Source of the DNA: a virus
Lineage: Duplodnaviria > Caudoviricetes
Strand: one strand, 5' to 3'
IMG/VR virus record: IMGVR_UViG_3300031825_000009
Span: 1-61,795 of that record
DNA length: 61,795 nucleotides
Below are positions 4,590 through 51,276 of the stretch, in pieces. The notes beneath the pieces are model-generated. The model was not told the origin of the DNA. It searched no databases and was given only the letters and a program-made list of their open reading frames with translations. Numbering within the stretch: position 1 is the first letter of the stretch; every line of letters begins with the position of its first letter. A program made the translations under genes and the position numbers.

Positions 4590-4835
4590 TCAGACGGTTC
4601 CGGGGATGCTCACTGGAATGAGGGCCGGGGCGTACCTTTCGGCAGAGGCCCCGGCCATGTCGTGTATGGGCGTAGCTACCCCTCTCGGGATAAACGGTCG
4701 CCAAGGAGAAGTGGGCGCCGCGAGTGTGCCGAACGGCAGGGAAACCCCGCCGTCCGCGTCATCCTCGTCCGACAGGGGGATGGGTTCGCCTCCCCACATG
4801 CCGTCCCAAGGATCGTCGTTCGGGTCCTCGATCAC
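4590..4835 (-). CDS. Hypothetical protein (uncertain)
   Basis: GTGA overlap with holin stop; 3' part overlaps hairpin-rich capsid leader. Confidence 0.3.
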   Translation of the reverse strand: MIEDPNDDPWDGMWGGEPIPLSDEDDADGGVSLPFGTLAAPTSPWRPFIPRGVATPIHDMAGASAERYAPALIPVSIPGTV

Positions 4836-31039: not shown

Positions 31040-32092
31040 AGCACATTCATCCGGGATTGAATCGGCTGGGGATTCCCTTGGCGAGTGATTTCTGATTCAC
31101 CGTGTGGACTGGCGAAGGAGGCCGGCTCGCATGGCGAACGCTCTTTCACTCGATCTTCGGCAGAGGGTTGTTGCAGCGGTCGAGGCCGGCGCGTCACGGC
31201 GGCAGGCGGCGGAGCGGTTCGGCGTCGGCGTCTCCTCTGCCATCCGCTGGGTTGCCCAGTCACAGGCGACGGGAGACCTCGAGCCGCGGCGGCGGGGCGG
31301 ATGTCGCCCGAGCCGCATCGACGGGCACGCCGATCTCATCAAGGACTGGATCGGCAGAGAGTTGGATCTGACGCTGGCGGAGATCGCCGAGAGGCTCGGC
31401 GAAGCCGTCGGCTACCGGCCGCCGCCGAGCGTGATGCACGACTTCTTCAAGCGCCGCGGCGTGACGCGCAAAAAAAGACGGCCCACGCCGCCGAGCAGGA
31501 CCGGCCGGACGTAGCGCACCGGCGACACACCTGGTTCGACGGCCAGCCGGACCTCGATCCCGAGCGCCTCGTCTCCATCGACGAAAGCGGCACCTCCACC
31601 AAGATGGCCCGCCTCTATGGCCGCGCGTCCCGGGGCGAGCGATGCCGGGCGCCGGTTCCGCACGGGCACTGGAAGACGACGACGTTCGTCGGGGGCCTCA
31701 CCCTTGCGGGCATCGTCGCGCCGATGACCATCGACGGCGCGATGACCGGCGCCGCCTTCCTCGCCTATGTCGAGCAGGTTCTGGTCCCGACCCTCAGGCC
31801 GGGCGACGTCGTCGTCCTTGACAATCTGCCGGCCCACAAGCCGGGCGCCATTCGCGAGGTCATTGAGGCCGCAGGAGCCGTCATGCACTTCCTGCCGCCA
31901 TACAGCCGCGACTTCAATCCGATAGAGCTGGCCTTCTCGAAGATGAAGGCCATCCTCAGGAAGGCGGCCGCCCGCACCCTCCCGGACCTCTGGGACGCGA
32001 TCCGAGGCGCCATCGACGCCGTCACTCCGGGCGATGCACGCAGCTTCTTCACCGCCTGCGGCCATGAACCCGAATGATCCGAATCTGCTCTA
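31037..32092 (+). mobile_element. IS630-family insertion sequence (orfA 31131-31514, orfB to 32077, A7G frameshift site at 31470-31477)
   Basis: TAGAGCA(C/G)ATTC terminal IRs with TA target; SIDESG, VLDNL, DFNPIE DDE motifs. Confidence 0.93.
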
Positions 32093-32543: not shown

Positions 32544-33305
32544 TCAGTCCGTCGTAAATCGTCCGATGACGCGTCCAACGATGGAGATTTCTTCGAGCAC
32601 GCGCTCGCGCGGTGTATGCCGCGGGTTGTCTGACTGCACCAGAACCCGTATCGGCTCTTCGCCGATGACCGAAACAACCTCGAGCCGCTTGACTTCGACC
32701 CCGCCGAACGCGTCGGCCAACGCATAGACGCCTGGGGGCGATGGCCGTCGGTGGGTGATGTCGACGAAGACGACGTCACCGTTGCGGATCGTGGGCATCA
32801 TCGAGTCGCCGGCGACGGGGAAGCACGCGACACTGCTCGCCTTCGCGTTCAGCTGAGACCGCAACAGCCATGGCGGCAGCCGCCACCAGTCCCGCAACTC
32901 CTCGGCGGCATAGGTGTGGCCGTTGGAACCCGCCTCCTGAGTGACGATCGACAATGTGCCCGGCCCGAGCCCGCCGGTGACGAGAACCTCAGGGATGGCG
33001 TCGTCGGGAATGCCGCGCCGACCGGTCTCGCTGCCGATGGTCGGAGGATGCTCGGGCGCGCGCTCCTGGAATGAGCGCACGGGCGCACCGAGAGAGACCT
33101 CGTCGACGCCGAGAATGTCCGCGAGCCGCTGCCGGTCGGTCTCCTTCAGATGCCGCGGGACGCCCCTGTTCAGGAACTGTTGGATGAAGGCCGGGTTGCG
33201 GCCGATCTCCCGCGACAGCGTCGACATGTCGATCTCGCGATCCTCGATGAGGGTCGCGAGGAACACGCGAGCGGGCGAGCGGTCGAACAGTTTGGTCGGA
33301 GCCAT
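32544..33305 (-). CDS. cI: CI-like repressor (HTH + S24 peptidase)
   Basis: LSREIGRNPAFIQQFL HTH; GDSMMPTIRNGD and VKRL catalytic Ser/Lys. Confidence 0.9.
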   Translation of the reverse strand: MAPTKLFDRSPARVFLATLIEDREIDMSTLSREIGRNPAFIQQFLNRGVPRHLKETDRQRLADILGVDEVSLGAPVRSFQERAPEHPPTIGSETGRRGIPDDAIPEVLVTGGLGPGTLSIVTQEAGSNGHTYAAEELRDWWRLPPWLLRSQLNAKASSVACFPVAGDSMMPTIRNGDVVFVDITHRRPSPPGVYALADAFGGVEVKRLEVVSVIGEEPIRVLVQSDNPRHTPRERVLEEISIVGRVIGRFTTD

Positions 33306-33379
33306 AGGAGAAATCCTATTGATCAACCCGCTTGCACGCGAATAGGATTATGCCTATCTTCGGATAGGAAGTTGCCTAC
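33304..33379. promoter_or_regulatory. OR operators (three) and PR promoter
   Basis: ATAGG-N6-CCTA(T/C) at 33304-33319, 33342-33357 and 33364-33379; TTGCAC-N17-TATCTT. Confidence 0.85.
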
Positions 33380-34063: not shown

Positions 34064-34540
34064 GTGGACAGCAGAGCTTTGCCCGCCGGCCTGATTCCGG
34101 CGCTGAAGGAGGCGACCCGCGCCGCGGTGCTCGCCGCCGGCGGCGTCAAGCGCGTGTGCGAGATCACCCGGCTCTCGGCGCCCTACCTCTCGAAGTGCCA
34201 GGGCGACGCCTATCCGGACCTGCTGCCGCCGTGGGCGATGGCACTCGTCGAATTCCACGCCCAGGCCCCCGTCTTCGCCAACGCCTTCGCCTCGCTCACG
34301 TCGCACCGGGTGATGCCGATCGCCGAAGGCGGCGGCGACGACAGCGGCGGGCACATCGCCGACCTCGCCGCGGTGGCGATGGCGGCCGCGGCGGTGACCG
34401 CCACGATGGCCGAAAACGCCGCCGACGGCGTGGTGACCGCGCGCGAGGCGAAGGGCGAGATGCGCCAGATCGGCGCGCTCGAGCGGGTGATGGACCGGCG
34501 CAAGCGCCGGCTCGCCGTGGTGGTGGGAGGCGGGGCATGA
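34064..34540 (+). CDS. CII-like regulatory protein
   Basis: LKEATRAAVLAAGG...LSKC; ADGVVTAREA C-terminus; downstream of cro. Confidence 0.65.
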   Translation: MDSRALPAGLIPALKEATRAAVLAAGGVKRVCEITRLSAPYLSKCQGDAYPDLLPPWAMALVEFHAQAPVFANAFASLTSHRVMPIAEGGGDDSGGHIADLAAVAMAAAAVTATMAENAADGVVTAREAKGEMRQIGALERVMDRRKRRLAVVVGGGA

Positions 34541-35643
34541 GCGGCACCCCCTGCTGGCGCAGGGTTCGGCGCTCAACCATTCCTGCGCCGACAGCCACGT
34601 GGCGGGGCGATATCGTCTACAATCTCTCCAATTCTATCGTCACTCTCCCGGTCAATGTAGTACGCATAAACCATATTCTTTTCATTATTCATGAACTGAT
34701 GAATATCCGGTTTATTCGAGCATTCGAAATGAACTATTTTACTTCTAAGCTCGGTCGCGGGAGAGAATCTAATATCAACCTTCTCGTTTTCATAACTCCA
34801 TATAGAACCAACGACGCGGTTACTCGCGAATCGAACAACTCCGGTCACTCTGCTGAGATTGAAATATATTGTACCCCCATATATCTCAGTCTCTCTGGAA
34901 TTCATATCTGCGTCTATAATATTAAGTTCTTCGGCATTTATTTCTACCACATTTCCAGAAAATCTCACGTTTCTAATACTCCCGAAGAGTCGAATTTTGC
35001 AGTAATATTTGCAGTATATCTCCGCCCAGGAGAGGTCGGCATTTCTTGCGTCAATGCCATTTCCGGAGAGCACGTCAATCTTCGCGCCTCGGAGATTGGC
35101 ACTTTGAATATTCACCGAATCCATTCCTGCATTCGTGAGCTTGGCTCCCCTGAGGTCTGCCCCCTTCAGTTGAGCATTCGTCAGGTCCGCTCCATTGAGG
35201 TTAAGCCCGACCAGATAGGCGCCGGCCGCTCCCTCGGTGGGCGGGCTCAAGTCGATGCCGCTCAAAGACTGTGCGGCGCCACCGAAGAGACCGAGCCACG
35301 GTGGGCTCGCCAGATACTCCATCGCCTCGACCTTTCCGGAGTTGCCGGGCGCCGGGGTCGTGAGGAGTTGCCATGCGCGGGCGCGCCGCTCGGCCGGGCG
35401 CTCGCTGAGATCGATGACGAAAGCGGCGACCGCGATGACGACGGCGAACACCTCCGCGAGCCGGAAGGCGCGAACGACGCTGCTGCCCTCGGCGCGATCG
35501 AACCATGTCCGGCGCGGAGAAGTCTCCTTCGGAGATCCACGGCTTTCGCCGGGTTCCGGCAGTGCGGTCATGACGTCCCCCCCTTCGCGACCACCGTCAC
35601 GCTACTCGCGAGCCGGCCCTCAGCAAAGCGGGAAGCACCGTGA
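34537..35643 (+). CDS. Sense-strand ORF fully overlaying an antisense moron (putative translational bridge)
   Basis: GGGAGG-N6-ATG overlapping the cII-like stop; TGATG overlap with the methyltransferase start. Confidence 0.4.
   Translation: MSGTPCWRRVRRSTIPAPTATWRGDIVYNLSNSIVTLPVNVVRINHILFIIHELMNIRFIRAFEMNYFTSKLGRGRESNINLLVFITPYRTNDAVTRESNNSGHSAEIEIYCTPIYLSLSGIHICVYNIKFFGIYFYHISRKSHVSNTPEESNFAVIFAVYLRPGEVGISCVNAISGEHVNLRASEIGTLNIHRIHSCIRELGSPEVCPLQLSIRQVRSIEVKPDQIGAGRSLGGRAQVDAAQRLCGATEETEPRWARQILHRLDLSGVAGRRGREELPCAGAPLGRALAEIDDESGDRDDDGEHLREPEGANDAAALGAIEPCPARRSLLRRSTAFAGFRQCGHDVPPFATTVTLLASRPSAKREAP
34573..35571 (-). CDS. Pentapeptide-repeat membrane protein (moron)
   Basis: TM segment, RAWQLL, A(D/N)L pentapeptide repeats, AT-rich 3' half. 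Confidence 0.8.
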   Translation of the reverse strand: MTALPEPGESRGSPKETSPRRTWFDRAEGSSVVRAFRLAEVFAVVIAVAAFVIDLSERPAERRARAWQLLTTPAPGNSGKVEAMEYLASPPWLGLFGGAAQSLSGIDLSPPTEGAAGAYLVGLNLNGADLTNAQLKGADLRGAKLTNAGMDSVNIQSANLRGAKIDVLSGNGIDARNADLSWAEIYCKYYCKIRLFGSIRNVRFSGNVVEINAEELNIIDADMNSRETEIYGGTIYFNLSRVTGVVRFASNRVVGSIWSYENEKVDIRFSPATELRSKIVHFECSNKPDIHQFMNNEKNMVYAYYIDRESDDRIGEIVDDIAPPRGCRRRNG

Positions 35644-37613
35644 TGCGCGCCGCGACGGACCTTTTCGGGGCGATCGCCGGGCCGCGGCCAGCGCCGGGCG
35701 ACGAGCTCATCGTCGACTCGTTCGCCGGCGGCGGCGGGGCCTCGACCGGGATCGAGATGGCGCTCGGCCGCTCGCCCGACGTCGCCATCAACCACGATTC
35801 CTGGGCGCTCCGGGTCCACGCTGCGAACCACCCGGCAACCTGGCACCTCTCGAAGAACGTCTGGCAGGTCGACCCGCTCGAGGCCGTGCGCGGCCATGCC
35901 GTCGGCCTCGCCTGGTTCTCGCCGGACTGCAAGCACTTCTCGAAGGCGAAGGGCGGCAAGCCGGTGCGCAAGAGCGTGCGCGATCTCGCCTGGGTGGTGG
36001 TGCTGTGGGCGAAGCGGGTCCGGCCGCGCGTCATCATCCTGGAAAACGTCGAGGAATTCCGCGACTGGGGGCCGATCACCGCCGAGGGGCGGCCCTGCCC
36101 GGAGCGCAAGGGCGAGACCTTCGCGCGGTGGGTGGGGGAATTGAAGCGGCTCGGCTACCGGGTCGAGCACCGCGAGTTGCGCGCCTGCGACTACGGCGCG
36201 CCGACGACGCGCAAGCGGCTGTTCCTGATCGCCCGGCGCGACGGGCGGCCGATCGTCTGGCCGGCGGCGACGCACGGGCGGCCCGACGACCCGGAGGTGC
36301 TGGCCGGCCGCAAGCGGCCGTGGCGGACCGCGGCGGAAATCATCGACTGGTCGCTGCCGTGCCCCTCGATCTTCGCCTCGAGCGCGGAGATCAGGGCGGC
36401 GCTCGGGGTCACCGCCAAGCGGCCGCTCGCCGAGGCGACCATGGCGCGAATTGCGAAAGGCGTGTGGCGCTACGTGGTGACGGCGAAGCGGCCGTTCATC
36501 GTGCCGGTGACGCACGCCGGCGACCTGCGCGTGCACTCGGCCGACGAGCCGCTGCGGACGATCACCACGGCCATGCGCGGTGAGCTGGCGGTGGTGGCGC
36601 CGGCGCTCGCCGCGCCGTTCGCGAGCTACGGCCAGCAGGGCGGCGCCTCGCGGCCGCTCGACGCGCCGCACTCGACGATCACGGCGAGCCGGAAGGATAC
36701 GAACGGGCTCGTCGTGCCCACTCTCGTCCCGGTCGATCTCGTCGCCGGGGCGATGGTGCAGACGGGCTATGGCGAGCGCAAAGGGCAGGCCCCGCGGGCG
36801 CTCGACGTCGAGGCGCCGATCGGCACGCAGGTCGCCGGGGCGACGAAGCACGCCGTGGTCGCGGCGCACCTCTCGATCATGCGCAACTCGGACAAGCCAT
36901 TCACGGCGGCCGACGAGCCGATGCACACGATCACGGCCGAAGGGGCACGCCCGGCCCTCGTCTCGGCCTTCCTCGCGCAGCATAACACCGGCGTCGTCGG
37001 GCACGAGGCCGGCAAGCCGCTCTCGACGATCACCTCGGGCGGGATGCACGGCGTCTCGCAGCAGGCGATCGTGGCGGCGCACCTGCAGCGGCAGTTCTCG
37101 CGCTCGGTCGGGGCGGAGGCCGGCGAGCCGCTGCGCACCGATTCCGAGCGCGGCAAGGATGCCGTGGTCGCGGCGCACCTCCTCAACCTGCACGGCGGCG
37201 ACCGGCGCGACCGCGCCGCCGACGAGCCGGTGCCGACCATCGCCGCCGGCGGCAACCACGTCGCGGAAGTCCGCGCCTTCCTGATGCGCTACTACGGCGA
37301 GGGCGGGCAGTGGTCGGCCTGCGACGAGCCGGTGCCGACGGACACGGTGAAGCCGCGCTTCGGGCTCGTGACCGTTTCCGGCGTCGAGTACCAGATCGTC
37401 GACATCGGCATGCGGATGCTGACGCCGCGCGAGCGCTTCGACGCGCAGGGTTTTCCGCCCGGCTACATCATCGACACGACGCTCGACGGCAAGCCGATCA
37501 CCGCGGAGATCCAGGGCCGGCTCGTCGGCAACTCGGTCTGCCCGCCGATGGCCGCCGCCCTCGTCGCCGCCAACTGCGCCGACCTCGCGGTCGCGCAGGA
37601 GGCGGCGGAGTGA
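35643..37613 (+). CDS. DNA (cytosine-5) methyltransferase
   Basis: FAGGGG, SPDCKHFS, ENVEEF, RKRLF, GNSVCP. Confidence 0.93.
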   Translation: MRAATDLFGAIAGPRPAPGDELIVDSFAGGGGASTGIEMALGRSPDVAINHDSWALRVHAANHPATWHLSKNVWQVDPLEAVRGHAVGLAWFSPDCKHFSKAKGGKPVRKSVRDLAWVVVLWAKRVRPRVIILENVEEFRDWGPITAEGRPCPERKGETFARWVGELKRLGYRVEHRELRACDYGAPTTRKRLFLIARRDGRPIVWPAATHGRPDDPEVLAGRKRPWRTAAEIIDWSLPCPSIFASSAEIRAALGVTAKRPLAEATMARIAKGVWRYVVTAKRPFIVPVTHAGDLRVHSADEPLRTITTAMRGELAVVAPALAAPFASYGQQGGASRPLDAPHSTITASRKDTNGLVVPTLVPVDLVAGAMVQTGYGERKGQAPRALDVEAPIGTQVAGATKHAVVAAHLSIMRNSDKPFTAADEPMHTITAEGARPALVSAFLAQHNTGVVGHEAGKPLSTITSGGMHGVSQQAIVAAHLQRQFSRSVGAEAGEPLRTDSERGKDAVVAAHLLNLHGGDRRDRAADEPVPTIAAGGNHVAEVRAFLMRYYGEGGQWSACDEPVPTDTVKPRFGLVTVSGVEYQIVDIGMRMLTPRERFDAQGFPPGYIIDTTLDGKPITAEIQGRLVGNSVCPPMAAALVAANCADLAVAQEAAE

Positions 37614-39580
37614 CGGCGACATTGGCTTCCAGCTCAGAAGGCGCTGAATTGCGCACCCACTCTTCAGGGCCGTCAGGAGACAATAGGGCTCCCGAATACT
37701 CAACCTCGATCGATCTCAGCGTCTATTTTTCTTACAAGCGAGTAAACCCTTCTTTCTTCGGAGGACGCCGCACTTTTAATTTTGACTATCGCCTCGTGCA
37801 ATTCGCTCAAGCTCTTCTCACATTTCGCGATAAATCGACCCGCACTATTGCTTCCGGACGGAAGATTCCAATATTCACTACTTATCCCCTCCAATACGAC
37901 CCCGTAGGCGCGGGTTACAACCCTCTCAAGATTGTCCGCAGCATCCATGATTCCGCTGGAGGCCGCATCAATCCTTGCACTATCAACCAATTCGAGGATC
38001 GAATTGGACGCCTCGTACGCATTCACTATCGTTATTTCATCTTTTGTGATGAATTCATCACGGGACGTATCTTCTCCATTAGGCTGATAAGCCATTCTTG
38101 TTCTGTTTATAGTAAAATTCATTATTCTTATGAATTTATCAATATCCTTGTTCTTTCTTTTTATCTCTACCCTGTACTTCAAAATAGATGCTCTTGTCTT
38201 CTTCAAATCCGTGCGTCGATTAATGTTAAACTGGTGCCAGACCGGTCGGGTGGCAACATACGCCGCGATCAACGTGAGCGCACCGCCGAGCGCCGTCGCT
38301 GCGACACCAAGCCATTCACGCGCGCATTGGATAGTGTTCTCGGAATCCGCTTTTCCGCACAGCGCAGGAATTCCGACATTGTCTTCAAAATAGAACCTAC
38401 AAATCAGCATTCCGAGAATGGTGCTAAATACGCCGCACGCTACGATCGGAATAATCCCGCCCGGATTTTCCTTCTTGCTCAATACTATCACTCCCATTCT
38501 TCTATTTCGCTGCCTAAAGAATGTAGATTTCTGTCAAACATCCGGCGTCTAGGTGGTGCGATGCCCCGCATCGCTCGGGGGAGCGTCGTCGATGAGGCGC
38601 GACAAGCAGGTATTGCGAGTGGACAGTCGTGCCGCGTCGTAGGGGCAAAGGAGCGCCAGGTTGATTTCATCGGGCCGCGGCCTGCGAACGAGGTGCGCTG
38701 CGATGCGAAAGGCGGCTGCATCTATGGCCAAGCGAAAGACGCCCGAGCGTTTACCGCCCGGGCGTCCATGTCAGGCGGCGACCGCCTCGACGATGAGGCG
38801 CACGCCGAGGGCGCGTGCGGCCTTGTCGAGCCGATCGAGCTTCGTGTTGTGCGACGGATCGAGGATCCGCCGCACCTCGCCTTCATCGAGGCCGAGCCGT
38901 GCCGCGAGCGCGACCTTGCTCACGCGGCTCGCCCGCCATGCGGACCAGACGGCCAGCTTGGCGGCGAAGGGGGCCGGCAGCGGAACGGCCACCTCCCCCT
39001 CGATGGGCGCGCTCGGGACCGGGATGTCCATCCCGTCCTTCATGCGCCCGCCGATCGCCACGACGAGGGCATCCTCGGCCTGATCCAGCGCCTCGGCTTC
39101 GGTCCGGCCGGCGGTGATCACCTCCGGCAGATCACGGCACGAGACGAGGATTTCGTCACCTTCGCCCGACCGTTCCAAGCGGACCGGCCATGCGAAGGAC
39201 CGCGGGTGCTCAGACATCAATTCCGATCTCCTTTCATCGGCGGCGTCCGTGAGGGGGCTCGCGCCCCCTCACAACTCCGCCGGATCAATTCCGACCTGTT
39301 CGCAGATCCGGCGAATGTGCATCGGGCTCAAGTCGCCGTCCTGCACCGTCGTTACCCGGCCTCCGAACCTGACCCGGTAGTGGCTGCCTTTGCCCAAGGT
39401 CTTGTCGACCTCGATTTCCAGCCCCCGCTTCCGGGCCAACCGGCGGAGCTTCCGGATCAGCTGATCTCTCAGCATGGGGTCGCTCCCGTTCAGTTTGTAG
39501 GGTCAATATCGGACAAAAATGTCCGCCCGTCAAGCGTGATCGGCGCTTTTTGTCCGATTTTTTCGGAGCGCACGGCATGA
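37610..39580 (+). CDS. 656-codon sense-strand ORF overlaying three antisense genes (putative translational bridge)
   Basis: AGGAGG-N7-GTG overlapping the methyltransferase stop; ATGA overlap with the primase start. Confidence 0.4.
   Translation: MTATLASSSEGAELRTHSSGPSGDNRAPEYSTSIDLSVYFSYKRVNPSFFGGRRTFNFDYRLVQFAQALLTFRDKSTRTIASGRKIPIFTTYPLQYDPVGAGYNPLKIVRSIHDSAGGRINPCTINQFEDRIGRLVRIHYRYFIFCDEFITGRIFSIRLISHSCSVYSKIHYSYEFINILVLSFYLYPVLQNRCSCLLQIRASINVKLVPDRSGGNIRRDQRERTAERRRCDTKPFTRALDSVLGIRFSAQRRNSDIVFKIEPTNQHSENGAKYAARYDRNNPARIFLLAQYYHSHSSISLPKECRFLSNIRRLGGAMPRIARGSVVDEARQAGIASGQSCRVVGAKERQVDFIGPRPANEVRCDAKGGCIYGQAKDARAFTARASMSGGDRLDDEAHAEGACGLVEPIELRVVRRIEDPPHLAFIEAEPCRERDLAHAARPPCGPDGQLGGEGGRQRNGHLPLDGRARDRDVHPVLHAPADRHDEGILGLIQRLGFGPAGGDHLRQITARDEDFVTFARPFQADRPCEGPRVLRHQFRSPFIGGVREGARAPSQLRRINSDLFADPANVHRAQVAVLHRRYPASEPDPVVAAFAQGLVDLDFQPPLPGQPAELPDQLISQHGVAPVQFVGSISDKNVRPSSVIGAFCPIFSERTA
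37700..38497 (-). CDS. AT-rich membrane protein (moron)
   Basis: Two TM segments flanking CAREWLG, followed by a helical domain; lower GC. Confidence 0.7.
   Translation of the reverse strand: MGVIVLSKKENPGGIIPIVACGVFSTILGMLICRFYFEDNVGIPALCGKADSENTIQCAREWLGVAATALGGALTLIAAYVATRPVWHQFNINRRTDLKKTRASILKYRVEIKRKNKDIDKFIRIMNFTINRTRMAYQPNGEDTSRDEFITKDEITIVNAYEASNSILELVDSARIDAASSGIMDAADNLERVVTRAYGVVLEGISSEYWNLPSGSNSAGRFIAKCEKSLSELHEAIVKIKSAASSEERRVYSLVRKIDAEIDRG
38771..39220 (-). CDS. hicB: HicB antitoxin
   Basis: VSCRDLPEVITAGRTEAEALDQAEDAL plus C-terminal HTH. Confidence 0.9.
   Translation of the reverse strand: MMSEHPRSFAWPVRLERSGEGDEILVSCRDLPEVITAGRTEAEALDQAEDALVVAIGGRMKDGMDIPVPSAPIEGEVAVPLPAPFAAKLAVWSAWRASRVSKVALAARLGLDEGEVRRILDPSHNTKLDRLDKAARALGVRLIVEAVAA
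39269..39475 (-). CDS. hicA: HicA toxin
   Basis: GKGSH motif, 68 aa, upstream of hicB. Confidence 0.85.
   Translation of the reverse strand: MLRDQLIRKLRRLARKRGLEIEVDKTLGKGSHYRVRFGGRVTTVQDGDLSPMHIRRICEQVGIDPAEL
39508..39558 (-). promoter_or_regulatory. hicAB promoter/operator
   Basis: TTGACG-N17-GATATT containing the CGGACA-N4-TGTCCG palindrome; 12-bp IR at 39508-39519/39547-39558. Confidence 0.65.
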
Positions 39581-40647
39581 CCTCGCGCGATGACGGCGAC
39601 GTCATCCGCGGGCGGCTCGTCGACGAGCTCGAGCGGCTGCTCGACGCCTATTGCCCTGGGTGGCTCGAGGTGCGCGGCGAAGGCTATCTCGCGCCGAAGA
39701 GCCGGGGCGACCTCGGCTCCTGGCGGGTGACGCTCGACGGGCAGCGGCGCGGGCTCTGGTATCGCCACAGCCAAGGCCTCGGCGGCGACGTGCTGGCGCT
39801 TCTCGCCTATTGCCTGTCCGGCAGCGTCAAGGTGGACGCGCGCACCTTCGAGGAGGCGCGGCGCTTCCTCGGCATCGAGGGGCGGCCGGACCCGGCCGAG
39901 GCCGAGAGGCGCCGGCGCGAGGCGGAGGCGCGGCGCGCCGCGCACGCCCGCGACGCCGCCGAGGCGCGGCTGCGCGAGACGATGAAGGCGCGCGACATCT
40001 GGCGCGCCGCCCGGCCGGCGGCGGGGACGCCGGTCGCCCGGTGGCTCGCCGCGCGCGGGCTCGACCTCGCCGCCGTGCCGCCGACGCTGCGGTTTCACCC
40101 GCGCCTGCCCTACTGGTGGTCGCCGCCGCGCGCCAAAGGCGAGGCGCCGCCGCGGCCCGTCGTCATCCACGACGGCCCGGCGATGGTCGGCCTCGTGACG
40201 CACGGGGAGACGGGGCGGCTCGTCGGGGTGCACCTGACGTGGCTCGCCGAGGATGGGCGGGCGAAGGCGGCGATCACCGCGCCGGACGGCAGGCCGCAGC
40301 TCGCCCGCAAGATGCGCGGCGCGCCGCGGGGCGGACACGTGCGCCTGGCGCCGCCGGCGGCGGCGATCGTGGTGGCCGAGGGGGTCGAGACCGCGCTCGC
40401 CGTGATGGCGGCGACGGGGCTGCCGACCTTCGCCGCGCTCTCGCTCGGCAACCTCGCCGCGCCCCTACCGGCCGGCGTCGGCGCCGTAGTGCTGGCGGTC
40501 GATGCCGACGAGGCCGACCCGGCCCGCGCCGAGACGACGAAGCGCGCCGCGGCCGAGGCGCACGCCGCCCGCGGGCTCGCCGTGAGCATCGCCCGGCCGC
40601 CGGCGGGGCACGACTTCAACTCGCTCTATCGAGGCGGGACGCGATGA
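39577..40647 (+). CDS. Toprim-type primase-like protein
   Basis: LRFHPRL, GVHLTWL, VAEGVETAL, DFNS. Confidence 0.8.
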   Translation: MTSRDDGDVIRGRLVDELERLLDAYCPGWLEVRGEGYLAPKSRGDLGSWRVTLDGQRRGLWYRHSQGLGGDVLALLAYCLSGSVKVDARTFEEARRFLGIEGRPDPAEAERRRREAEARRAAHARDAAEARLRETMKARDIWRAARPAAGTPVARWLAARGLDLAAVPPTLRFHPRLPYWWSPPRAKGEAPPRPVVIHDGPAMVGLVTHGETGRLVGVHLTWLAEDGRAKAAITAPDGRPQLARKMRGAPRGGHVRLAPPAAAIVVAEGVETALAVMAATGLPTFAALSLGNLAAPLPAGVGAVVLAVDADEADPARAETTKRAAAEAHAARGLAVSIARPPAGHDFNSLYRGGTR

Positions 40648-42458
40648 CGGACCACGACGACCTCGCCGGACCCGACGCCGTGCGCGACGCCATCGCGGCG
40701 GCCGAGCCCTACGCCGCGCGGCCCGCCCGCCCCGCAGCCCCGGCCGACCTCGGCGGCGCCTTCGCCGACGACGAGGCCGAGGGTAGCGAGGCGCCCTCGG
40801 AAACGCTGGGGGGCGCCGGGGGGCGCGCGGGCGCGATCGACATGGCGGTCGTGGGGGAGTGCGCGGCGCTCGACCACTCCGACACCGACAACGGGCGGCG
40901 GCTCATCGCGCACTTCGGCGCGGATCTGCGCGTCTTCCAGACCTCCGGCGAGCGCAATGCGGGCTTCGTGGTGTGGGCCGGAACGCACTGGAACCTCGAC
41001 ACCGGCAAGGACGCCGCCTTCGCGATGGCACAACGGGTGGGCGGGCTCATCGCGCTCGAGGCCGACCACCTCGCCCAGACGCCGGCCGAGGCGCGGGCGA
41101 TCGACGAGGGCGAGGCGGCCGCCGAGGCGCTCGCCCGGATGGAACCGCGGCGGGCCGAGTGGTCGGATGCCGACAAGGCGACGGCGCGGCGGCTGGAGCG
41201 CGCCATCGACGCCGCCGATGCCGCCCGCGACGCGCTCGACAAGCGGAAGGCGGCGCGGCGGAAATTCGGCGTCTCCTCGAAGAACGCGGCGCGGCTGAAG
41301 GCGATGCTGGAATGCGCCGCGCCGATGCTGCTGACGCCGCCGGAGGCCTTCAACCGCGACCCGCTGGTGGTGGCGACGCGCACGCACACCCTGCGCTTCC
41401 GCCGCACGCCCGACCTCGAATGCCCGGATCCCGACGGGCTGCGCTGGACGGCCGAGTGCATCGCGAGCGACGGGCACCGGCGCGACGACCTCGTGACGCG
41501 CATCGTCGACCTCGCTTTTGACGACGCGGCGGCGTGCCCGCTCTTCGACGCCTTCCTGCTGCGCTTCCTGCCTGTCGATTCGGTCCGCCGCTTCGTGCAG
41601 GTGGTGGCGGGGCTCGGGCTCCTCGGCTCGACGGTGCAGAAGCTCGTCTTCCACTACGGCGAGGGGGCGAACGGCAAGAGCGTGTTCCTGCAGACGATCG
41701 CCAACGTGCTCGGCGCGCTCGCCTCGACGCTCTCGCCCGACGCCATCACCGGATCGAACCAGCGGCAGGGCAACCAGGCGAGCCCGGAGCTCGCCCGGCT
41801 CTTCGGCAAGCGCTTCGTCCGCGTCTCGGAACTGCCGGAGGGCATTCCGCTGCAGGAGGAACTGGTGAAGCGCCTTTCGGGCGGCGAGGACATTCCCGTC
41901 CGAAACCTCTTCCAGGGCATCTTCGACTTCCACCCGGAATTCATCGCCCACATGTCGGGCAACGGCTATCCGCGTATCGAGGGCACGAACAACGGCATCT
42001 GGCGCCGTATGGCGGTGGTGCACTGGCCGGTGACGCTGGCCGAGGACGAACAGAAGCCCTTCGACGAGGTGATCGACGGCTTCCGCCCGGAATATTCCGG
42101 CATCCTCAACTGGCTGGTGCAGGGCGCGCTGATCTACCTCGCCGAGGGGCTCTACGTGCCGCCGGAGGTGAAGGCGGCGACGAAGGAATACCGCGACGAG
42201 ATGGACCCGATCGGGCCGTTCTGCGAGGCGTGCGTCGAGGTCTTTCCCGAAGGCATCGTCCAGGCGCGCGAGATGTATGAAGCCTATGTGTCGTGGGCGA
42301 TGGCGAACGGCGTCAAGCCTATTCACGAGACGCGGTTCGGAAAGACGATGAAGACACGATTCCGGCGCGACGATGAGCGCATCCGCCGCTACCACGACTG
42401 CCGATTGCACGACGTGCCGCTGCGACCGGACACACCCCGCAACCCCCGGGAGGATTGA
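40644..42458 (+). CDS. P4-family primase / D5-like helicase
   Basis: DTDNGRRL, GEGANGKS Walker A, GIWRRM. Confidence 0.88.
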   Translation: MTDHDDLAGPDAVRDAIAAAEPYAARPARPAAPADLGGAFADDEAEGSEAPSETLGGAGGRAGAIDMAVVGECAALDHSDTDNGRRLIAHFGADLRVFQTSGERNAGFVVWAGTHWNLDTGKDAAFAMAQRVGGLIALEADHLAQTPAEARAIDEGEAAAEALARMEPRRAEWSDADKATARRLERAIDAADAARDALDKRKAARRKFGVSSKNAARLKAMLECAAPMLLTPPEAFNRDPLVVATRTHTLRFRRTPDLECPDPDGLRWTAECIASDGHRRDDLVTRIVDLAFDDAAACPLFDAFLLRFLPVDSVRRFVQVVAGLGLLGSTVQKLVFHYGEGANGKSVFLQTIANVLGALASTLSPDAITGSNQRQGNQASPELARLFGKRFVRVSELPEGIPLQEELVKRLSGGEDIPVRNLFQGIFDFHPEFIAHMSGNGYPRIEGTNNGIWRRMAVVHWPVTLAEDEQKPFDEVIDGFRPEYSGILNWLVQGALIYLAEGLYVPPEVKAATKEYRDEMDPIGPFCEACVEVFPEGIVQAREMYEAYVSWAMANGVKPIHETRFGKTMKTRFRRDDERIRRYHDCRLHDVPLRPDTPRNPRED

Positions 42459-42473
42459 CCGGCGACTGCGGCC

Positions 42474-42787
42474 GACCCTCGCGCCCGCTGCGGTTGTCGA
42501 GGGTCGCGAGGGTTCGCGAGGGTTTGAGGCAAACCCTCGCGCGACGAAACAGCGAGCCGGGCCAATGGCTTCAGGACGGCTTGCGAGGGTTGCGAGGGTT
42601 TTCGCGCCCGTACGCATGGCGAATGGGGTCACGGGGCCGAAGGACGATCGAATTCCAAGTCTTCATGTGTATAGACAGTCAAACCCTCGCAACCCTCGCA
42701 GAGGATATGCAGATGATTGATATCGATAGGGAAAATGACCGCGAGGGTTCGTTCGTGGACCCTCGCGGACCCTCGCGACCCTCGCAG
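42474..42787. repeat. Iteron cluster (GCGAGGGT) in both orientations, putative replication origin
   Basis: About a dozen copies immediately after the helicase gene. Confidence 0.75.
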
Positions 42788-43492
42788 GACGCCCGCGGCG
42801 TGCGCCTCGTCGACCCGGACAGCGTCGACCCGGCGATCAAGGCGTGGTGGTTCGGCCGCCTCGCCGAGGCGGCGGGGCGGCGGGCGGCCGAGCGGGCGCG
42901 CGAGGCGGCGGGCGACGGCCGCGGCGCGTGGCATCTGGTGCAGACCGTGCCGCGCGGCGAGGTGCTGGCCGCCGGGGCGCTCGGCGAGGCGGGGTTCGGC
43001 GTGTTCCTGCCGCGCTACCGGGCGAGCGTGCCGGTGGGCCGCTTGGTGCCCGGGCGGACGCGGCGGGTGATCGCCGTCGAGCGGGCGCTGTTCGCGGGCT
43101 ATCTCTTCGTCCGCGTCGAGCCGGGACAGGGCTGCTACGGCGTCGGCAAGGCGCGCGGCGTGGCGCGAATCGTGGCGACGGGGGAGGGGCCGGCTGTCGT
43201 TCCCGACGTGGTGGTCGGGGCGCTCATGGCCGAGGCGGACGCGGCGGGGCTGATGGCGCCGCCGCCGGACGGGCCGAGCGGCGCCGTGCTCTGGGCGGTC
43301 GGCGAGGTGGTCCGGATGATCGGCGGTCCGCTCGCCGGGTTCGAAGGGCCGGTGACGGCTGTTGACGAACGGGGCGCGGTGCGGGTAGATCTTGCGCTGT
43401 TCGGTCGCGCGGTTGCGGTGACCGCGTCTGCTGAAGATGTCGCCAAGGTGACGTCTTCGCCTCGGAAGAGACCGAGGCAGAAGCGACGGTAG
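42707..43492 (+). CDS. NusG/RfaH-like antiterminator (start uncertain)
   Basis: WHLVQT...LFAGYLFV NGN domain; GEVVRMIGGPLAGFEG KOW motif. Confidence 0.82.
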   Translation: MQMIDIDRENDREGSFVDPRGPSRPSQDARGVRLVDPDSVDPAIKAWWFGRLAEAAGRRAAERAREAAGDGRGAWHLVQTVPRGEVLAAGALGEAGFGVFLPRYRASVPVGRLVPGRTRRVIAVERALFAGYLFVRVEPGQGCYGVGKARGVARIVATGEGPAVVPDVVVGALMAEADAAGLMAPPPDGPSGAVLWAVGEVVRMIGGPLAGFEGPVTAVDERGAVRVDLALFGRAVAVTASAEDVAKVTSSPRKRPRQKRR

Positions 43493-46670: not shown

Positions 46671-48274
46671 ACGAGCCCCTCCCGCCGGTGACCGAGACCG
46701 CGGCGCCGCGCCCCGAAGCCTCGGCGGCGCGATCGGCGCACGCCGCCGGCGATCTCGGCGCGCAGGCGGTCGCCGGATGGATGCCGGCGCTCAACTCGGC
46801 GGACACGGATTGGCTGCCGGAGCGCGACCTGTCCGTCGCGCGAATCCGCGACCTCGTGCGGAACGAGGGATGGGCGCAGTCGGCGGTCGATCGGCTCGTC
46901 GACATGACGGTCGGCGCGACGTTCCGCCTGTCGGCGAAGCCCGATGCCCGCGGCCTCGGCATCCCGGAAGAGGCGGCGAAGGAGTTCGCGCAGGAGATCG
47001 AGGCGAAGTGGCGGTCGTTCGCCGAGGATCCGACGTTCCGGAACGATGCGCAGCGCCGCCTTCCCTTCGTCGGGCAGATCGGACTGCTCGCGCGCGAGAT
47101 GGTGCAGGCCGGCGAGGGCCTCGCCCAGCTGCGCTGGATCCCCCGCGCGGGCTGGCCGTATGCGACGTGCCTGCAGGTGATCGACGTCGACCGGCTGTCG
47201 AACCCCTACGGCAAGTCGGACGATGAGCAGCTGCGCGGCGGCGTCGAGCTCGACGAGAACGGCGCTCCGATCGCCTACCACCTGCGCGGCAGCCATCCCG
47301 GCGAGCGCTGGACCAGCCCCGCCGCCTACCGTTGGGACCGGATTCCGCGCTGGGATGACGTCTACGGCTGGGAACGGCCGAAGATGCTCCACATCTTCGA
47401 GCCGCACCGGCCGGACCAGACGCGGGGCGTGTCGCGTCTCGTCGCCTCGCTCGTCAAGACGCGGCTGCTGTCGCGTCATTCCGAGGCCGAGGTGAAGGCC
47501 GCGGCGATCAACGGCTCAATCGTCGGGGCGATCTACACGCAACTCGGGCAGGAGTTCGCCGCCGAAGTGCTCGGCGGAGACCACTCCCGCGCCGGCGTCG
47601 ATTGGGTGGGCCTCAACGAGGCGCGGGGCGCCTTCTACGGCGACCGTCGCGTGCTCGACGACGCGCGGTTCCTGACGCTCTTTCCGAGCGACAAGCTCGA
47701 GATGAACGTCAACCCGCGCAACACGGTCGGCTTTCCGGCCTTTCAGACCGCGTTCCTGCAGAACTTCGCGGCCTCGCTCGGCCTGTCCTACGAACAGCTG
47801 TCGATGGACTGGTCGCGGACCAACTATTCGAGCGCTCGGGCGGCGCTCAACGAGGTGTGGCGGGCGATCGGGCGGCTTCGGGCGACGATCACATGGGGTG
47901 CGGCGCAGCCGATCTATACCGCGTGGCTCGAGGACGCCCTCGACACCGGCGACATCGTGGCTCCGCCCGGGGCGCCGGACTTCTACGAAGCACCGGCGGC
48001 CTATGTCCGCTCGGAATGGATCGGCCCGGCCCGCGGCTACGTCGACCCGGTGAAGGAAGCCCAGGCCGCGGCGCTCCGGATCAAGGCCCGCATCTCGACG
48101 CTCGAGCGCGAGATCGCTGAACAGGGCGGAGACATCAACCTGGTGCTGCCGCAGCTCGCCCGCGAGGCGGCCGCCCTCGGCGCGCTCGGGCTCTCGGCGG
48201 CCGAAACCGACCTCGCGGTCGTGGCACCGACAGATGGACCGGCGGCCGATCGGCGGCCGGCCGAGGAAGGGTAG
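46667..48274 (+). CDS. Lambda-family portal protein
   Basis: RDLVRN, GGVELD, QTRGVS, NYSSARA, VDPVKE. Confidence 0.93.
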   Translation: MNEPLPPVTETAAPRPEASAARSAHAAGDLGAQAVAGWMPALNSADTDWLPERDLSVARIRDLVRNEGWAQSAVDRLVDMTVGATFRLSAKPDARGLGIPEEAAKEFAQEIEAKWRSFAEDPTFRNDAQRRLPFVGQIGLLAREMVQAGEGLAQLRWIPRAGWPYATCLQVIDVDRLSNPYGKSDDEQLRGGVELDENGAPIAYHLRGSHPGERWTSPAAYRWDRIPRWDDVYGWERPKMLHIFEPHRPDQTRGVSRLVASLVKTRLLSRHSEAEVKAAAINGSIVGAIYTQLGQEFAAEVLGGDHSRAGVDWVGLNEARGAFYGDRRVLDDARFLTLFPSDKLEMNVNPRNTVGFPAFQTAFLQNFAASLGLSYEQLSMDWSRTNYSSARAALNEVWRAIGRLRATITWGAAQPIYTAWLEDALDTGDIVAPPGAPDFYEAPAAYVRSEWIGPARGYVDPVKEAQAAALRIKARISTLEREIAEQGGDINLVLPQLAREAAALGALGLSAAETDLAVVAPTDGPAADRRPAEEG

Positions 48275-48279
48275 ACAGC

Positions 48280-49767
48280 ATGTCGCGCGACGCATCGGCG
48301 GCCGCCCGGTTCTTCGGGCGGGCGGTCCTGCTCGACCCGCAGCACGGCCGGGACCAGGTCGCGGCGCTCCTCGCCCGCTGCAGCGAGCGCGAGCCGGTGC
48401 TCGGCCGTCTCGGCCGGATGCTCGGTCTCGCGCGTGCCGGCGACGACGGCGAGCGGCCGGACCGCCCCGCTGCCTGGACGCCGCCCTATCTCCGCGCCCG
48501 GTCGACGGTCCGCCCGTCGGGGCTCGTCGTCGCCGAGGGTGTCGCCGTCCTCGACGTGCGCGGGCCGCTGCTCGACCGCGCGCTCGTCTGGTGGGACGGC
48601 GAGGTGTGGTGCGACGGCTACGACCGCGTTTCCGCCGCGCTCGACGAGGCACGGCTCGACCCGGTGATCCGGGCCGTGCTCATCCGATTCGACACGCCCG
48701 GCGGCCTCGTCGACGGACTCGAAGGGTGCGCCCGATCCATCCGCGCCGTCTCGGCGGCGGGGAAGCCGGTTCACGGCTACGTGGGCGCCATGGCGCTCTC
48801 GGCCGGCTATTGGCTCGCCGCGGCCTGCGACCGGATCGTCTCGTCGCCGGAAGGTCTCACCGGCTCGGTCGGCGTCATCATCCTGCACATGGAGATGAGC
48901 GGGTGGCTCGCCGAGACGGGGATCACCGTCACGCCGATCACCTTCGGCGCGAAGAAGGCGGACGGCTCGCCCTATGCGCCGCTCTCCGAGACGGCCCGCA
49001 CCGACATGCAGGGGATGGTCGACGAGCTCGGCCTTCGCTTCGCGGGCCACGTGGCCGGTCGGCGCGGCCTCGCCGTCGCCGACGTGGTCGCGCTTCAGGC
49101 CGGCGTGCTGATGCCGAGCGGCGCCACGCCGGCCGCCCTCATCGACGAAGTCGCCTTCGAGGACGAGGCCTTCGCCTCGCTCCTCTCGACCCTCGGGACG
49201 AGCGGTTCCGAGGACGCATCCCCCCCAGCACAGGAGGCCGATATGGGCCTGAGGGACAAGATCACGGCCATTCTTTCCGGCCGCGGCTCCGCCAACGCGA
49301 AGCTCAAGCGCCTCGGCGCGGCTGTGGCCGAGGACGAAGATGAGAAGACCGCCGCCGGCGCCGAGGACGACGAGGACGAAACGTCGGCCGAGGGCGAGGA
49401 GGACAAGCCGGTGGACGACGAGGAGACCGCCGCCGAGGGCGAGGACGACAAGCCCGAGGACGAATACGAGGACGGGCCGGCGGCCGGCGCCAGCCTGAAG
49501 ACGGCGAAGGCGATCCTCGACCTGCCCTCGGCGAAGGGACGCGAGAAGCTCGCCCGCGAGCTGGCGTTCGCCGGCTTGTCGGTGAAGACGGCCGACCGGC
49601 TGCTCTCGGCGGCGCCGAAGGCCGGCGGCCGCCTGACCGAGGCGATGGCGGGGCGCGACGTGAATCCCGGCAGCGGCGCCGGCGCGGGCGGCAAGGGCGA
49701 CACCGCCGACCGCATGGCGTCGAACTTCGCGGCCGCCGGCGGCTCCACGCGGCTCCGCAAGGCCTGA
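48280..49767 (+). CDS. S49 prohead protease with nested scaffold (internal AGGAGG-ATG at 49243)
   Basis: DTPGG, ALSAGYWLA, GSVGV; acidic C-terminal Nu3-like region. Confidence 0.88.
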   Translation: MSRDASAAARFFGRAVLLDPQHGRDQVAALLARCSEREPVLGRLGRMLGLARAGDDGERPDRPAAWTPPYLRARSTVRPSGLVVAEGVAVLDVRGPLLDRALVWWDGEVWCDGYDRVSAALDEARLDPVIRAVLIRFDTPGGLVDGLEGCARSIRAVSAAGKPVHGYVGAMALSAGYWLAAACDRIVSSPEGLTGSVGVIILHMEMSGWLAETGITVTPITFGAKKADGSPYAPLSETARTDMQGMVDELGLRFAGHVAGRRGLAVADVVALQAGVLMPSGATPAALIDEVAFEDEAFASLLSTLGTSGSEDASPPAQEADMGLRDKITAILSGRGSANAKLKRLGAAVAEDEDEKTAAGAEDDEDETSAEGEEDKPVDDEETAAEGEDDKPEDEYEDGPAAGASLKTAKAILDLPSAKGREKLARELAFAGLSVKTADRLLSAAPKAGGRLTEAMAGRDVNPGSGAGAGGKGDTADRMASNFAAAGGSTRLRKA

Positions 49768-49821
49768 CCCGAACTCCCCCGCAGCCCGGCCGGACCCGGC
49801 CGACGACAGAGGACCACCAAC

Positions 49822-50181
49822 ATGGCGGAGACCTTCACCTATTCCCCCGACGACCTCATCGTCGGGGACATGCCCGTCTTCAGCGAGCCGGAGACGATCG
49901 CCGCGGGCCAAAACCTCGCCCGCGGCTCCGTTCTCGGCCGCGTCACGGCGAGCAAGAAGCTGATCCTGTCGCTTTTGGCCGCGAGCGACGGCTCGCAGAC
50001 GCCGGTCGCGATCCTCGTCGCCGCGACCGATGCGAGCGGCGGCGACGTCTCGGCGCCGGTCTACAAGGCCGGCCACTTCGACGAGACCAAGCTCGTCTAC
50101 GGCGCCGGCCACACGGCCGAGACCGTGAAGCTCGCCTTCGGCGGCAAGGGCATCTTCCTGCGCGAGCCGCTCGCGCTCTGA
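49822..50181 (+). CDS. Head decoration protein (gpD-like)
   Basis: GSVLGRVT, DGSQTPVAIL. Confidence 0.85.
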   Translation: MAETFTYSPDDLIVGDMPVFSEPETIAAGQNLARGSVLGRVTASKKLILSLLAASDGSQTPVAILVAATDASGGDVSAPVYKAGHFDETKLVYGAGHTAETVKLAFGGKGIFLREPLAL

Positions 50182-50241
50182 CGACATCGGCGCCGGCGGT
50201 CGGCGCCGCCTTCCCCGCATCTCATCAAAAGGAGATCCGAC

Positions 50242-51276
50242 ATGCCCGTCGGCGCCTATGACACCCGCACGCTGCTGAAGGTGATCGAGGAGAAGCTCGA
50301 CCGTCCGAAGACGTTCCTGCTCGACACCTTCTTCCCGACGATCCAGACCTTCGACACCGAGTCGATCGACTTCGACATCCTGAAGACGAAGGCGAAGCTC
50401 GCGCCGTTCGTCCATCCGGACGCGACCGCTCGGCCGACGCGCACGGGCGGCTACGAGACGAAGACCTTCAAGCCGGCCTACATCAAGATGCTCGAGGCGG
50501 TGAAGCCCGGCCGGGCGCTGAAGCGGCGCGCCGGCGAGCGCTACATGGGCGAGATGTCGCCCGAGGCGCGCATGGACGCCATCATCACCGACGTCCTCGA
50601 CGCGCAGCGCAAGGCGATCCTGCGGCGCAAGGAGTGGATGGCGGCGCAGGCGGTCCGCTTCGGGCAGGTCGTCGTCGAAGGGCCGGACTATCCGAAGCAG
50701 ATCGTCGACTACGACCGGCACGAGGATCTGACCGTCACGCTGCTGACCACCGCCCGCTGGGGCGAGAGCGGCGTCGACCCGCTCGACGACATCGAGACCT
50801 GGGCGGGCCTCGTGCAGGATCACTGCGGCGTCGCCGGCACGATGATCACGTTCGCGCCGGGGGCGTGGAAGATCGCCCGACAGTCCGAGCGGCTGATGAA
50901 GCTGCTCGACCTCCGCCGGCAGGCCTCGGGCAACGTCGAACTCGGGCCGGTATCGGTCGACAACACGATCACCGGCGCTCGCTACGTCGGCACGATCGGC
51001 GAGCTCGACTTCCACGTCTACCAGCAGAGCTACGACGAGGAGAACGGCACGGCGGCGAAGTTCCTCGACGACTTCAACGTCATCGTCGGGTCGTCGTTCG
51101 TCGAAGGCGTGCAGGCGCACGGCGCCATCGAGGACGTCGAGGTGCTGCGCCCGCTCGAGATCCTCCCCGACGTCTACGACGAGAAGAACCCGTCGCGGCG
51201 CTTCGTGAAGTCCGAGTCGGCGCCGCTCGTCGTGCCGACCCGCGTCAACGCGGCGCTCTGCGCCAAGGTGCGCTGA
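50242..51276 (+). CDS. Major capsid protein (lambda gpE-like)
   Basis: LAPFVHP, FKPAYIK, EWMAAQA, SAPL. Confidence 0.93.
   Translation: MPVGAYDTRTLLKVIEEKLDRPKTFLLDTFFPTIQTFDTESIDFDILKTKAKLAPFVHPDATARPTRTGGYETKTFKPAYIKMLEAVKPGRALKRRAGERYMGEMSPEARMDAIITDVLDAQRKAILRRKEWMAAQAVRFGQVVVEGPDYPKQIVDYDRHEDLTVTLLTTARWGESGVDPLDDIETWAGLVQDHCGVAGTMITFAPGAWKIARQSERLMKLLDLRRQASGNVELGPVSVDNTITGARYVGTIGELDFHVYQQSYDEENGTAAKFLDDFNVIVGSSFVEGVQAHGAIEDVEVLRPLEILPDVYDEKNPSRRFVKSESAPLVVPTRVNAALCAKVR

Follow-up and report, generated by a model that had tools for sequence, protein, structure and literature searches.

Open reading frames that bridge antisense cargo genes in a phage early operon appear to be kept free of stops by selection

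Where genes of an operon overlap by ATGA or GTGA, ribosomes are passed from one gene to the next, and translation shields the RNA from Rho; one account describes intragenic rut sites shielded in this way and Rho polarity caused by uncoupling (PMC12360218). The same source covers processive antitermination, in which lambda N and Q, P4 Psu and NusG paralogues of the RfaH/LoaP type take RNA polymerase (RNAP) past foreign stretches without Rho termination (PMC12360218). Here, we describe two long open reading frames (ORFs), referred to as bridges, in the early operon of the virus record IMGVR_UViG_3300031825_000009. The record, analyzed as a single stretch of 61,795 nt (61.8 kb; hereafter, the window), has 69% GC and shows prophage organization from ≈32.5 kb on. 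Each bridge lies on the operon strand and spans cargo genes that face the other way.

In contrast to ordinary translational coupling, one link of the chain here runs antisense through genes, spacers and a promoter, and nothing suggests that its product matters. Antiterminators act in trans and modify RNAP or Rho, whereas a bridge would be a cis-encoded, factor-free reading frame; the window phage has a NusG/RfaH-like gene of its own, the last in the chain. Long ORFs opposite genes, in which the stops are TTA, CTA and TCA, are common in GC-rich DNA (cf. PMC3454372, bioRxiv 10.1101/724807, PMC5810103). Unlike these shadow ORFs, a bridge covers several genes together with non-coding DNA, survives AT-rich cargo, is coupled at both ends and context-dependent, and has no evident conserved product. 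In leader peptides and regulatory upstream ORFs, too, it is the act of translation that counts and not the peptide, but these are short, 5′-proximal and regulatory, whereas bridges have 250–850 codons, are internal to the operon and apparently constitutive. A classical moron is a self-contained unit placed between two genes. Phage morons are compositionally deviant, have their own promoter, are useful to the lysogen and lie between core genes (cf. PMC3594210); the present cargo resembles them, with a promoter-like site only, but is antisense and nested in an ORF of the operon strand, with the start and stop of this ORF as the borders of the unit. Coupling, polarity and shadow ORFs are textbook matters; what would be new is their combination in a long ORF that is held open across antisense genes, forms the border of a cassette and has an irrelevant product. 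Within the limited terms and collection of our literature search, no paper describing such bridge ORFs was found.

The longer of the two, bridge B, lies among the following features:

35640..37613, plus strand: C-5 cytosine DNA methyltransferase (methylase), Pfam DNA_methylase, E 1e-22
37597..37602, plus strand: Shine–Dalgarno (SD)-like AGGAGG within the coding end of the methylase, 7 nt before the GTG at 37610
37610..39580, plus strand: bridge ORF B, 656 codons, forming GTGA with the methylase stop and ATGA with the primase start
37700..38497, minus strand: AT-rich orphan cargo gene, 265 aa, two N-terminal hydrophobic helices
38771..39220, minus strand: hicB antitoxin, 149 aa, Pfam HicB_lk_antitox, E 5.7e-5, and homologues
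39269..39475, minus strand: hicA toxin, 68 aa, Pfam HicA_toxin, E 0.0022, below the cut-off
39505..39533, minus strand: promoter-like site TTGACG-17-GATATT upstream of hicA, inside the frame of bridge B
39577..40647, plus strand: primase (DUF7146 and Toprim), Pfam E 2e-26 and 9.9e-14

A sequence-only reading of this DNA had singled out bridge B, and its description of the geometry was borne out at both ends. AGGAGG (37597–37602) is followed after 7 nt by the GTG at 37610–37612, which overlaps the methylase TGA (37611–37613), and the 656 sense codons end with a TGA (39578–39580) over the primase ATG (39577–39579). Measured from stop to stop, the frame is open from 36986, and earlier in-frame starts are present, the first being a GTG at 37310. 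The three minus-strand genes (37700–38497, 38771–39220 and 39269–39475) are codon-aligned to the bridge, as had also been claimed. Their triplet boundaries coincide with those of the bridge, and any stop in the bridge would therefore correspond to a cargo codon TTA, CTA or TCA. The AT-rich gene, at a GC of 0.47, has none of these codons among its 39 Leu and Ser codons (18 Leu, 21 Ser), in agreement with that reading, and they are likewise missing from hicB (0/25) and hicA (0/10). Other codons ending in A are plentiful in the AT-rich gene (ATA 10, GTA 7, GGA 7, AGA 7, GAA 11). Across this gene the bridge frame has no stops, and the other five frames have 5, 17, 23, 22 and 1, the last being the gene's own stop.

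The probability of an open frame was estimated given the observed register, by resampling synonymous codons (from reference ORFs for the AT-rich gene and from window genes for hicB and hicA) and shuffling the intergenic pieces. The codon reference consisted of 43 other AT-rich ORFs among 81 fetched phage loci. In these ORFs, TTA, CTA and TCA make up 231 of the 1190 codons of the six-codon Leu and four-codon Ser sets (q = 0.194), and not one of the 43 is free of them. The probability came to 1.6e-6 for bridge B, and to 7e-5 (bridge A), 1.2e-6, 2.4e-4 and 4.8e-4 for four other bridges; these values are rough and to that extent weaken the case, as the pooled-codon null disregards variation in codon use from gene to gene. 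For the AT-rich cargo, freedom from stops has P ≈ 1e-4 to 5e-3 per gene.

An in-frame ATG is present at 38561, with AGGTGG at 38551–38556 and a spacing of just 4 nt, and two cassettes had been proposed to be fused at this point. Two modules are indeed present, but related DNA puts their joint near 38745–38756. The sole operon-strand terminator-like hairpin within the bridge, at 38042–38065 (plus strand), is weak, with three of ten pairs being G–C, and lies inside the AT-rich gene.

A second bridge, A, lies upstream of the methylase, and the chain continues past the primase:

32544–33326, minus strand: S24 repressor, on the opposite strand to the early operon
34064..34540, plus strand: upstream early-operon gene, 158 aa, GC content at third codon positions (GC3) 0.94, its TGA overlapping the start of bridge A
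34537..35643, plus strand: bridge ORF A, 368 codons, spanning the antisense pentapeptide gene
34573..35571, minus strand: pentapeptide-repeat protein, 332 aa, AT-rich cargo, Pfam Pentapeptide, E 2.2e-11
40644..42458, plus strand: D5-type helicase, ATGA-joined to the primase
42455..43492, plus strand: NusG/RfaH-like protein, 345 aa (NGN and KOW), Pfam NusG and KOW

Bridge A starts with the ATG at 34537, preceded by GGGAGG and in an ATGA overlap with the stop of the 158-aa gene (the junction reads gggaggcggggcATGA), and it ends with the TGA at 35641–35643 in a GTGA overlap with the methylase GTG at 35640. Its frame has no stops, compared to 10 and 17 in the other plus frames. The pentapeptide gene is codon-aligned to it and has TTA, CTA or TCA at none of its 50 Leu and Ser codons. 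Altogether, seven ORFs between 34064 and 43492 (9.4 kb), both bridges included, are joined in order by ATGA, GTGA, GTGA, ATGA, ATGA and TTGA.

An SD-preceded start on the upstream stop, combined with a stop on the downstream start, was found not only in the window but in other loci over other cargo:

L002: bridge of 595 codons, GTG on the methylase stop, over an AT-rich gene with two transmembrane (TM) helices, an HTH_3 antitoxin and a ParE toxin
L057: bridge of 251 codons, GTGA on the methylase stop and GTGA on the primase start, over a DUF4145 gene
L082, mirror orientation: bridge of 301 codons, in the order CII-like gene, BrnT/BrnA, Prim-Pol, with ATGA at its end
L029 and L059: bridges at hicBA upstream of a methylase, with NTGA overlaps (N, any base) at both ends

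In L002, all three cargo genes are codon-aligned, and the end of the bridge overlaps the ATG of a D5-type gene by one base. The L082 bridge starts with GGAGG, 8 nt and a TTG overlapping the stop of the CII-like gene. L029 and L059 are strongly diverged from each other, with indels between them that are not multiples of three. All seven curated bridges (two in the window, L002, L057, L082, L029 and L059) have a GGAGG-like SD sequence 6–9 nt before the start, and in all seven the terminal TGA lies on the start of the next gene. In L152, an AT-rich two-TM gene and hicB lie beneath a single bridge of 542 codons, the same type of island as in the window. Two candidates were rejected: that of L014 is a real plus-strand gene (DUF1376, E 3.6e-21) with the minus-strand ORFs as its shadows, and that of L009 (14237–14650, over a 102-aa ORF) is too small, with six relevant codons. 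L001 (5921–6463 vs. 5948–6298) was taken as ambiguous, and L049, which duplicates L047, was not counted in the methylase set. No matches came from genome and metagenome contigs scanned with the primase as anchor, or from viral contigs scanned with hicB as a single protein.

Two surveys addressed position and context. The position test used 50 AT-rich ORFs (51 minus one shadow), grouped by geometry alone and not by outcome. Of the nine ORFs that follow the stop of a gene on the opposite strand within 150 nt, five lacked TTA, CTA and TCA, compared to two of the 41 others (Fisher p = 0.001), and one of these two exceptions shares its island with a counted case. For the hicB survey, 66 viral loci obtained via a HicB alignment (two of them without a hicB ORF) were combined with nine of 12 genome and metagenome loci, and the resulting 73 loci were reduced by 15-mer sharing to 56 non-redundant hicB modules. 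The counts leave out L148, L149 and L089 (no hicB ORF), L164 (partial match) and L088 (GC 0.36, no hicA). A survey of 173 gaps between confident same-strand genes was noisy, since missed real genes resemble bridges, and was excluded from the counts.

Most hicB modules are flanked by opposite-strand genes. Among modules with a GC of at least 0.5, 22 of the 28 embedded ones had an open aligned opposite frame, compared to one of six co-oriented ones (Fisher p = 0.008) and 10 of 16 with unclear flanks (embedded vs. all the rest, p = 0.04). Of 58 ordinary flanking genes of 180–320 codons from the same loci, 17 had an aligned antisense frame without stops (p = 2e-5 vs. embedded modules). Frequent sense-frame stops in homologous cassettes, named at the outset as a finding that would count against selection, were thus not what the survey returned; when embedded, at a GC of at least 0.5, the frame is mostly open. 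Exact NTGA overlaps at both ends, with neighbors of at least 60 codons, were found in 15 non-redundant modules, corresponding to 15 of the 33 open-frame modules (32 viral, one genomic) at GC ≥ 0.5, and six more had both ends within 10 nt. Bridges also occur in phages with 48–49% GC (L097 and L100), where the chance probability is ≈1e-4, from small local references. As in the window, several of the modules follow the same methylase end motif or have a methylase on one side and a DUF7146 primase on the other.

There are also observations that weigh against this picture. Given the codon usage of L029 and L059, an open frame is rather likely to arise there by chance (P 0.09–0.3), and these two bridges are therefore only supportive. 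Closed frames were found in six of the 28 embedded hicB modules at GC ≥ 0.5. Flank orientation was taken from a crude GC3-based gene caller, and under an alternative classing, based on whether a gene on the opposite strand occurs at most 130 nt from the hicB stop, the difference was not significant (20/27 vs. 13/23 modules open, p = 0.24). Convergent AT-rich antisense ORFs in L056, L001, L025 and L002 carry two to four stops in the bridge frame; they are either counter-examples or doubtful ORFs. AT-rich antisense ORFs in L058 and L027 are also unbridged, and the unbridged ORFs of L056, L058 and L027 matched no known family. The cultured phages LESphi3, PY54 and ENT39118 have 5–25 stops per frame across their embedded genes, which in LESphi3 and ENT39118 lie directly downstream of the Q antiterminator. 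Low-GC phages are unbridged, and all six embedded hicB modules at GC < 0.5 were closed (0/6 open).

As a separate observation, hicAB genes with opposite-strand flanks and 4–16 stops in every opposite frame were seen in L109, L118, L120–L125, L128–L131 and L136 (GC 0.36–0.38) and in L143 (GC 0.45).

The bridge arrangement is thus frequent but not obligatory. Judged from sequence comparison, the conclusion that selection keeps the doubly coupled sense frame open, and that a GC-rich shadow does not account for it, is well supported. The original interpretation stands insofar as the open frame appears selected, recurs over unrelated cargo in independent phages and depends on context; it does not hold universally, given the low-GC phages, the Q-proximal sites and some other islands.

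Why the frame should be kept open is a further question. Most likely in order to avert Rho polarity, the stop-free bridge would carry ribosomes across the antisense cargo, and on balance we consider this explanation probable. Cargo expressed in the lysogen would be placed backwards, such that its promoter does not drive the lytic genes, and the early transcript would then have to cross it. The SD-preceded start on the upstream stop would load ribosomes, and translation would run to the start of the next gene. The nascent early RNA would never be left untranslated and would thereby be spared Rho termination, and the ribosomes would move on to the replication genes. Since the NusG/RfaH-like gene is the last of the chain, its product would not be able to protect the preceding genes until it had been made. 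We infer translation of the frame, read-through by transcription and Rho as the agent. The RNA of five of the seven curated bridges has an excess of C over G, with (C−G)/(C+G) of +0.05 to +0.10 compared to ≈0 in the flanks, and the local G–C skew reaches −0.34 over the AT-rich gene. Two points tell against this explanation: the C-over-G excess is absent in L002 (−0.03) and L082 (−0.01), and every downstream gene has an SD-like motif of its own, so that coupling is not obviously required.

The frame might instead be open and translated for a benefit other than escape from Rho, such as termination–reinitiation, protection from RNase, or the melting of sense–antisense duplexes to silence the cargo in lytic growth. 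The exact NTGA overlaps at both ends of the 15 hicB modules and the seven curated bridges, and the NTGA coupling of the entire 34064–43492 chain, would suit such a benefit. So would the promoter-like site of the cargo, which faces the operon, so that sense–antisense RNA pairing is expected, and the weak or absent C-over-G excess in some bridges. The SD-like motifs of the downstream genes count against this explanation as well, and the results do not separate such benefits from avoidance of Rho. The lack of bridges just past the Q antiterminators of LESphi3 and ENT39118, however, fits better with a rationale based on transcription termination, and we regard a non-Rho benefit as a possible but rather unlikely explanation.

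That the bridges are true antisense overlapping genes with functional products is more doubtful still. Their SD-preceded, coupled starts imply that they are made, and ORFs across hicAB have been called as proteins in public data. A search with the 656-aa product returned four matches (184–299 aa) among 1.84 billion representatives, all within residues 386–643, which mirror hicBA; the four resemble bridge ORFs of other hicAB loci and are unlike HicA or HicB. The L029 and L059 products are 29% identical over 128 aa. However, no relative of the N-terminal 385 residues was found among the 1.84 billion representatives, and the cargo at each site fully determines both length and sequence. No bridge tested had a Pfam match, and neither did the ORF at 34156–35643, which contains bridge A. 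Bridges that span different cargo have unrelated products, and the only similarities reflect homologous cargo or the promoter region of hicA. In the three longer cargo-free stretches of the window, the bridge frame has a GC3 of 0.54–0.62, not above the other frames, whereas the real genes of the window have 0.82–0.98, and the bridge products show no codon adaptation. The peptide is probably an irrelevant by-product.

The remaining alternative, a shadow ORF that arose by chance in a GC-rich genome, with modules joined at gene ends by recombination and no selection, was already disfavored and is hardly credible: long shadow ORFs are common in the window, as the sequence-only reading had cautioned (e.g., 48037–51120), 17 of the 58 ordinary genes have one, GC-rich hicBA alone would be open with P 0.09–0.6, and the methylase end provides SD and GTGA whatever comes next, but stop-free AT-rich cargo, the differences of embedded modules from co-oriented modules, ordinary genes and AT-rich ORFs elsewhere, the double NTGA coupling of 15/33 open modules and the bridges at 48–49% GC all speak against it.

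A related hicBA module was found in L087, a locus with chromosomal-looking neighbors in a 536-kb metagenome contig, where it is 93% identical to window positions 38740–39600. Owing to a 1-nt deletion in their spacer, hicB and hicA no longer share a register there, and stops are present in every plus frame across the module. Contigs from other metagenomes have the same spacer variant and the same flanks as L087; in contigs from four DNA runs, hicBA is covered and the AT-rich gene largely is not. This loss of register, although a single case, fits with a constraint that is relaxed outside the operon. In the reverse complement of L087, ≈27 nt around 4800–4830 resemble the 5′ end of the primase (window 39574–39603), with the ATG changed to ATC. 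Because of this apparent remnant, the comparison suggests that the chromosomal hicBA module is derived from a phage and not the reverse.

The slot between methylase and primase is, on sequence comparison, a swap site. The L001 primase is 92% identical to that of the window, and DNA homology with the window ends at 37619 and restarts at 39578. The L001 slot holds plus-strand genes, including a second methyltransferase, with the same GTGA overlaps at both ends. The methylase, which has 576 relatives among the viral contigs, belongs to a family that ends with a conserved GGAGGCGGCGGA(G/A)TGA (window 37590–37613; L057 10060–10085), and the bridge starts in L096, L113, L142, L147 and L151 use this motif. 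The methylase end resembles a ready-made coupling socket, with an SD sequence and an overlapping start for whatever follows downstream.

The cargo genes of the island differ in composition. The two AT-rich genes of the window, with GC of 0.47 and 0.54 compared to 0.69 for the window, are deviant, whereas hicBA (0.62–0.71) is not. A codon log-odds strand classifier was dropped, as it gave ≈0.01 per codon in AT-rich ORFs; purine at codon position 1, family matches and the Atlas model were used instead. For the orphan at 37700–38497, purine at position 1 is 0.73 on the minus strand vs. 0.50 on the plus strand, and public gene calls and Atlas both carry the minus-strand protein (model predicted local distance difference test, pLDDT, 0.70). 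Together with the hydrophobic helices, this points to the minus strand as the coding strand. A search of 5.8 billion proteins recovered the orphan only, no relative was found among the viral contigs, and there was no PADLOC, Pfam or NCBIfam match; PADLOC was blank for the cargo as a whole. The closest named Atlas clusters are the retron Ec48 effector, DUF4760 and AbiC-like (scores 0.78–0.82), and by these model-based matches the protein is possibly a membrane effector of the abortive-infection type, which we treat as a lead only. The orphan is dissimilar in sequence to the analogous two-TM genes of L002 and L152. AT-rich genes with two hydrophobic helices at 37700–38497, L002 8681–9244 and L152 4490–5197 are dissimilar to one another, and each adjoins toxin–antitoxin genes under one bridge; the recurring pairing may represent a defense effector plus toxin–antitoxin unit. 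The pentapeptide protein has 282 homologues at E ≤ 1e-3.

The HicB assignment is based on 23.7 bits to Pfam HicB_lk_antitox (cut-off 27) and on 199 homologues at E ≤ 1e-10, many of them named antitoxin HicB and bearing PF15919/PF15970, which places a HicB domain in this protein. HicA scores 18.5 bits to Pfam HicA_toxin (cut-off 27); its size of 68 aa and its site upstream of hicB are consistent with the assignment, and it is 100% identical to an L087 protein that adjoins hicB. The two genes lie on one strand (minus) in toxin-first order, hicA (39475–39269) and then hicB (39220–38771). Two promoter-like sites were found in the island region, vs. 0.8 expected from shuffles, and no minus-strand terminator-like site follows either hicB or the AT-rich gene. 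Upstream of hicA there is a palindrome, CGGACAAAAATGTCCG, plus an extra copy of TTTTTGTCCGA, at 39510–39525 and 39547–39557. The palindrome motif is retained in L087, L029 and L059, the bridge frame passes it without a stop, and it is probably the HicB operator.

The 158-aa gene at the head of the chain had zero matches in Pfam or NCBIfam. Terminase and late genes follow downstream of the early operon. The top NCBIfam matches of the NusG/RfaH-like protein are RfaH, UpxY and LoaP, each below the cut-off. Its gene (42455–43492) is placed between the replication genes and a 355-nt gap that precedes the terminase genes, and the protein may be a phage-borne late-gene antiterminator. At its left edge, the prophage has a stretch of lower GC that contains a DDE_3 transposase ORF (31085–32077, Pfam E 6e-33).

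Bridge ORFs could well constitute a general, unrecognized class of phage ORF that is translated for the sake of translation, and form the default home of backward toxin–antitoxin and defense cargo in temperate phages of mid- and high-GC hosts, with their starts and stops as the borders of mobile cassettes. If so, genes expressed in the lysogen could sit in the middle of a lytic operon, with no promoter leaking into the lytic genes and the lytic transcript unbroken. This would explain the presence of antisense defense and toxin–antitoxin cargo inside essential lytic operons, and its odd codon bias, as selection on the frame would shape both the synonymous codons of the cargo (no TTA, CTA or TCA) and the spacing of its genes. 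A cis-encoded, factor-free protection of operons across foreign DNA would then stand beside antitermination of the N, Q, Psu and RfaH types. For annotation, a long ORF without a family, NTGA-coupled at both ends and opposite toxin–antitoxin or defense genes, would be treated neither as an annotation error nor as an interesting protein, but as a structural element of the operon. Bridges would also offer a testable handle on how strongly the coupling of transcription and translation constrains genome architecture.

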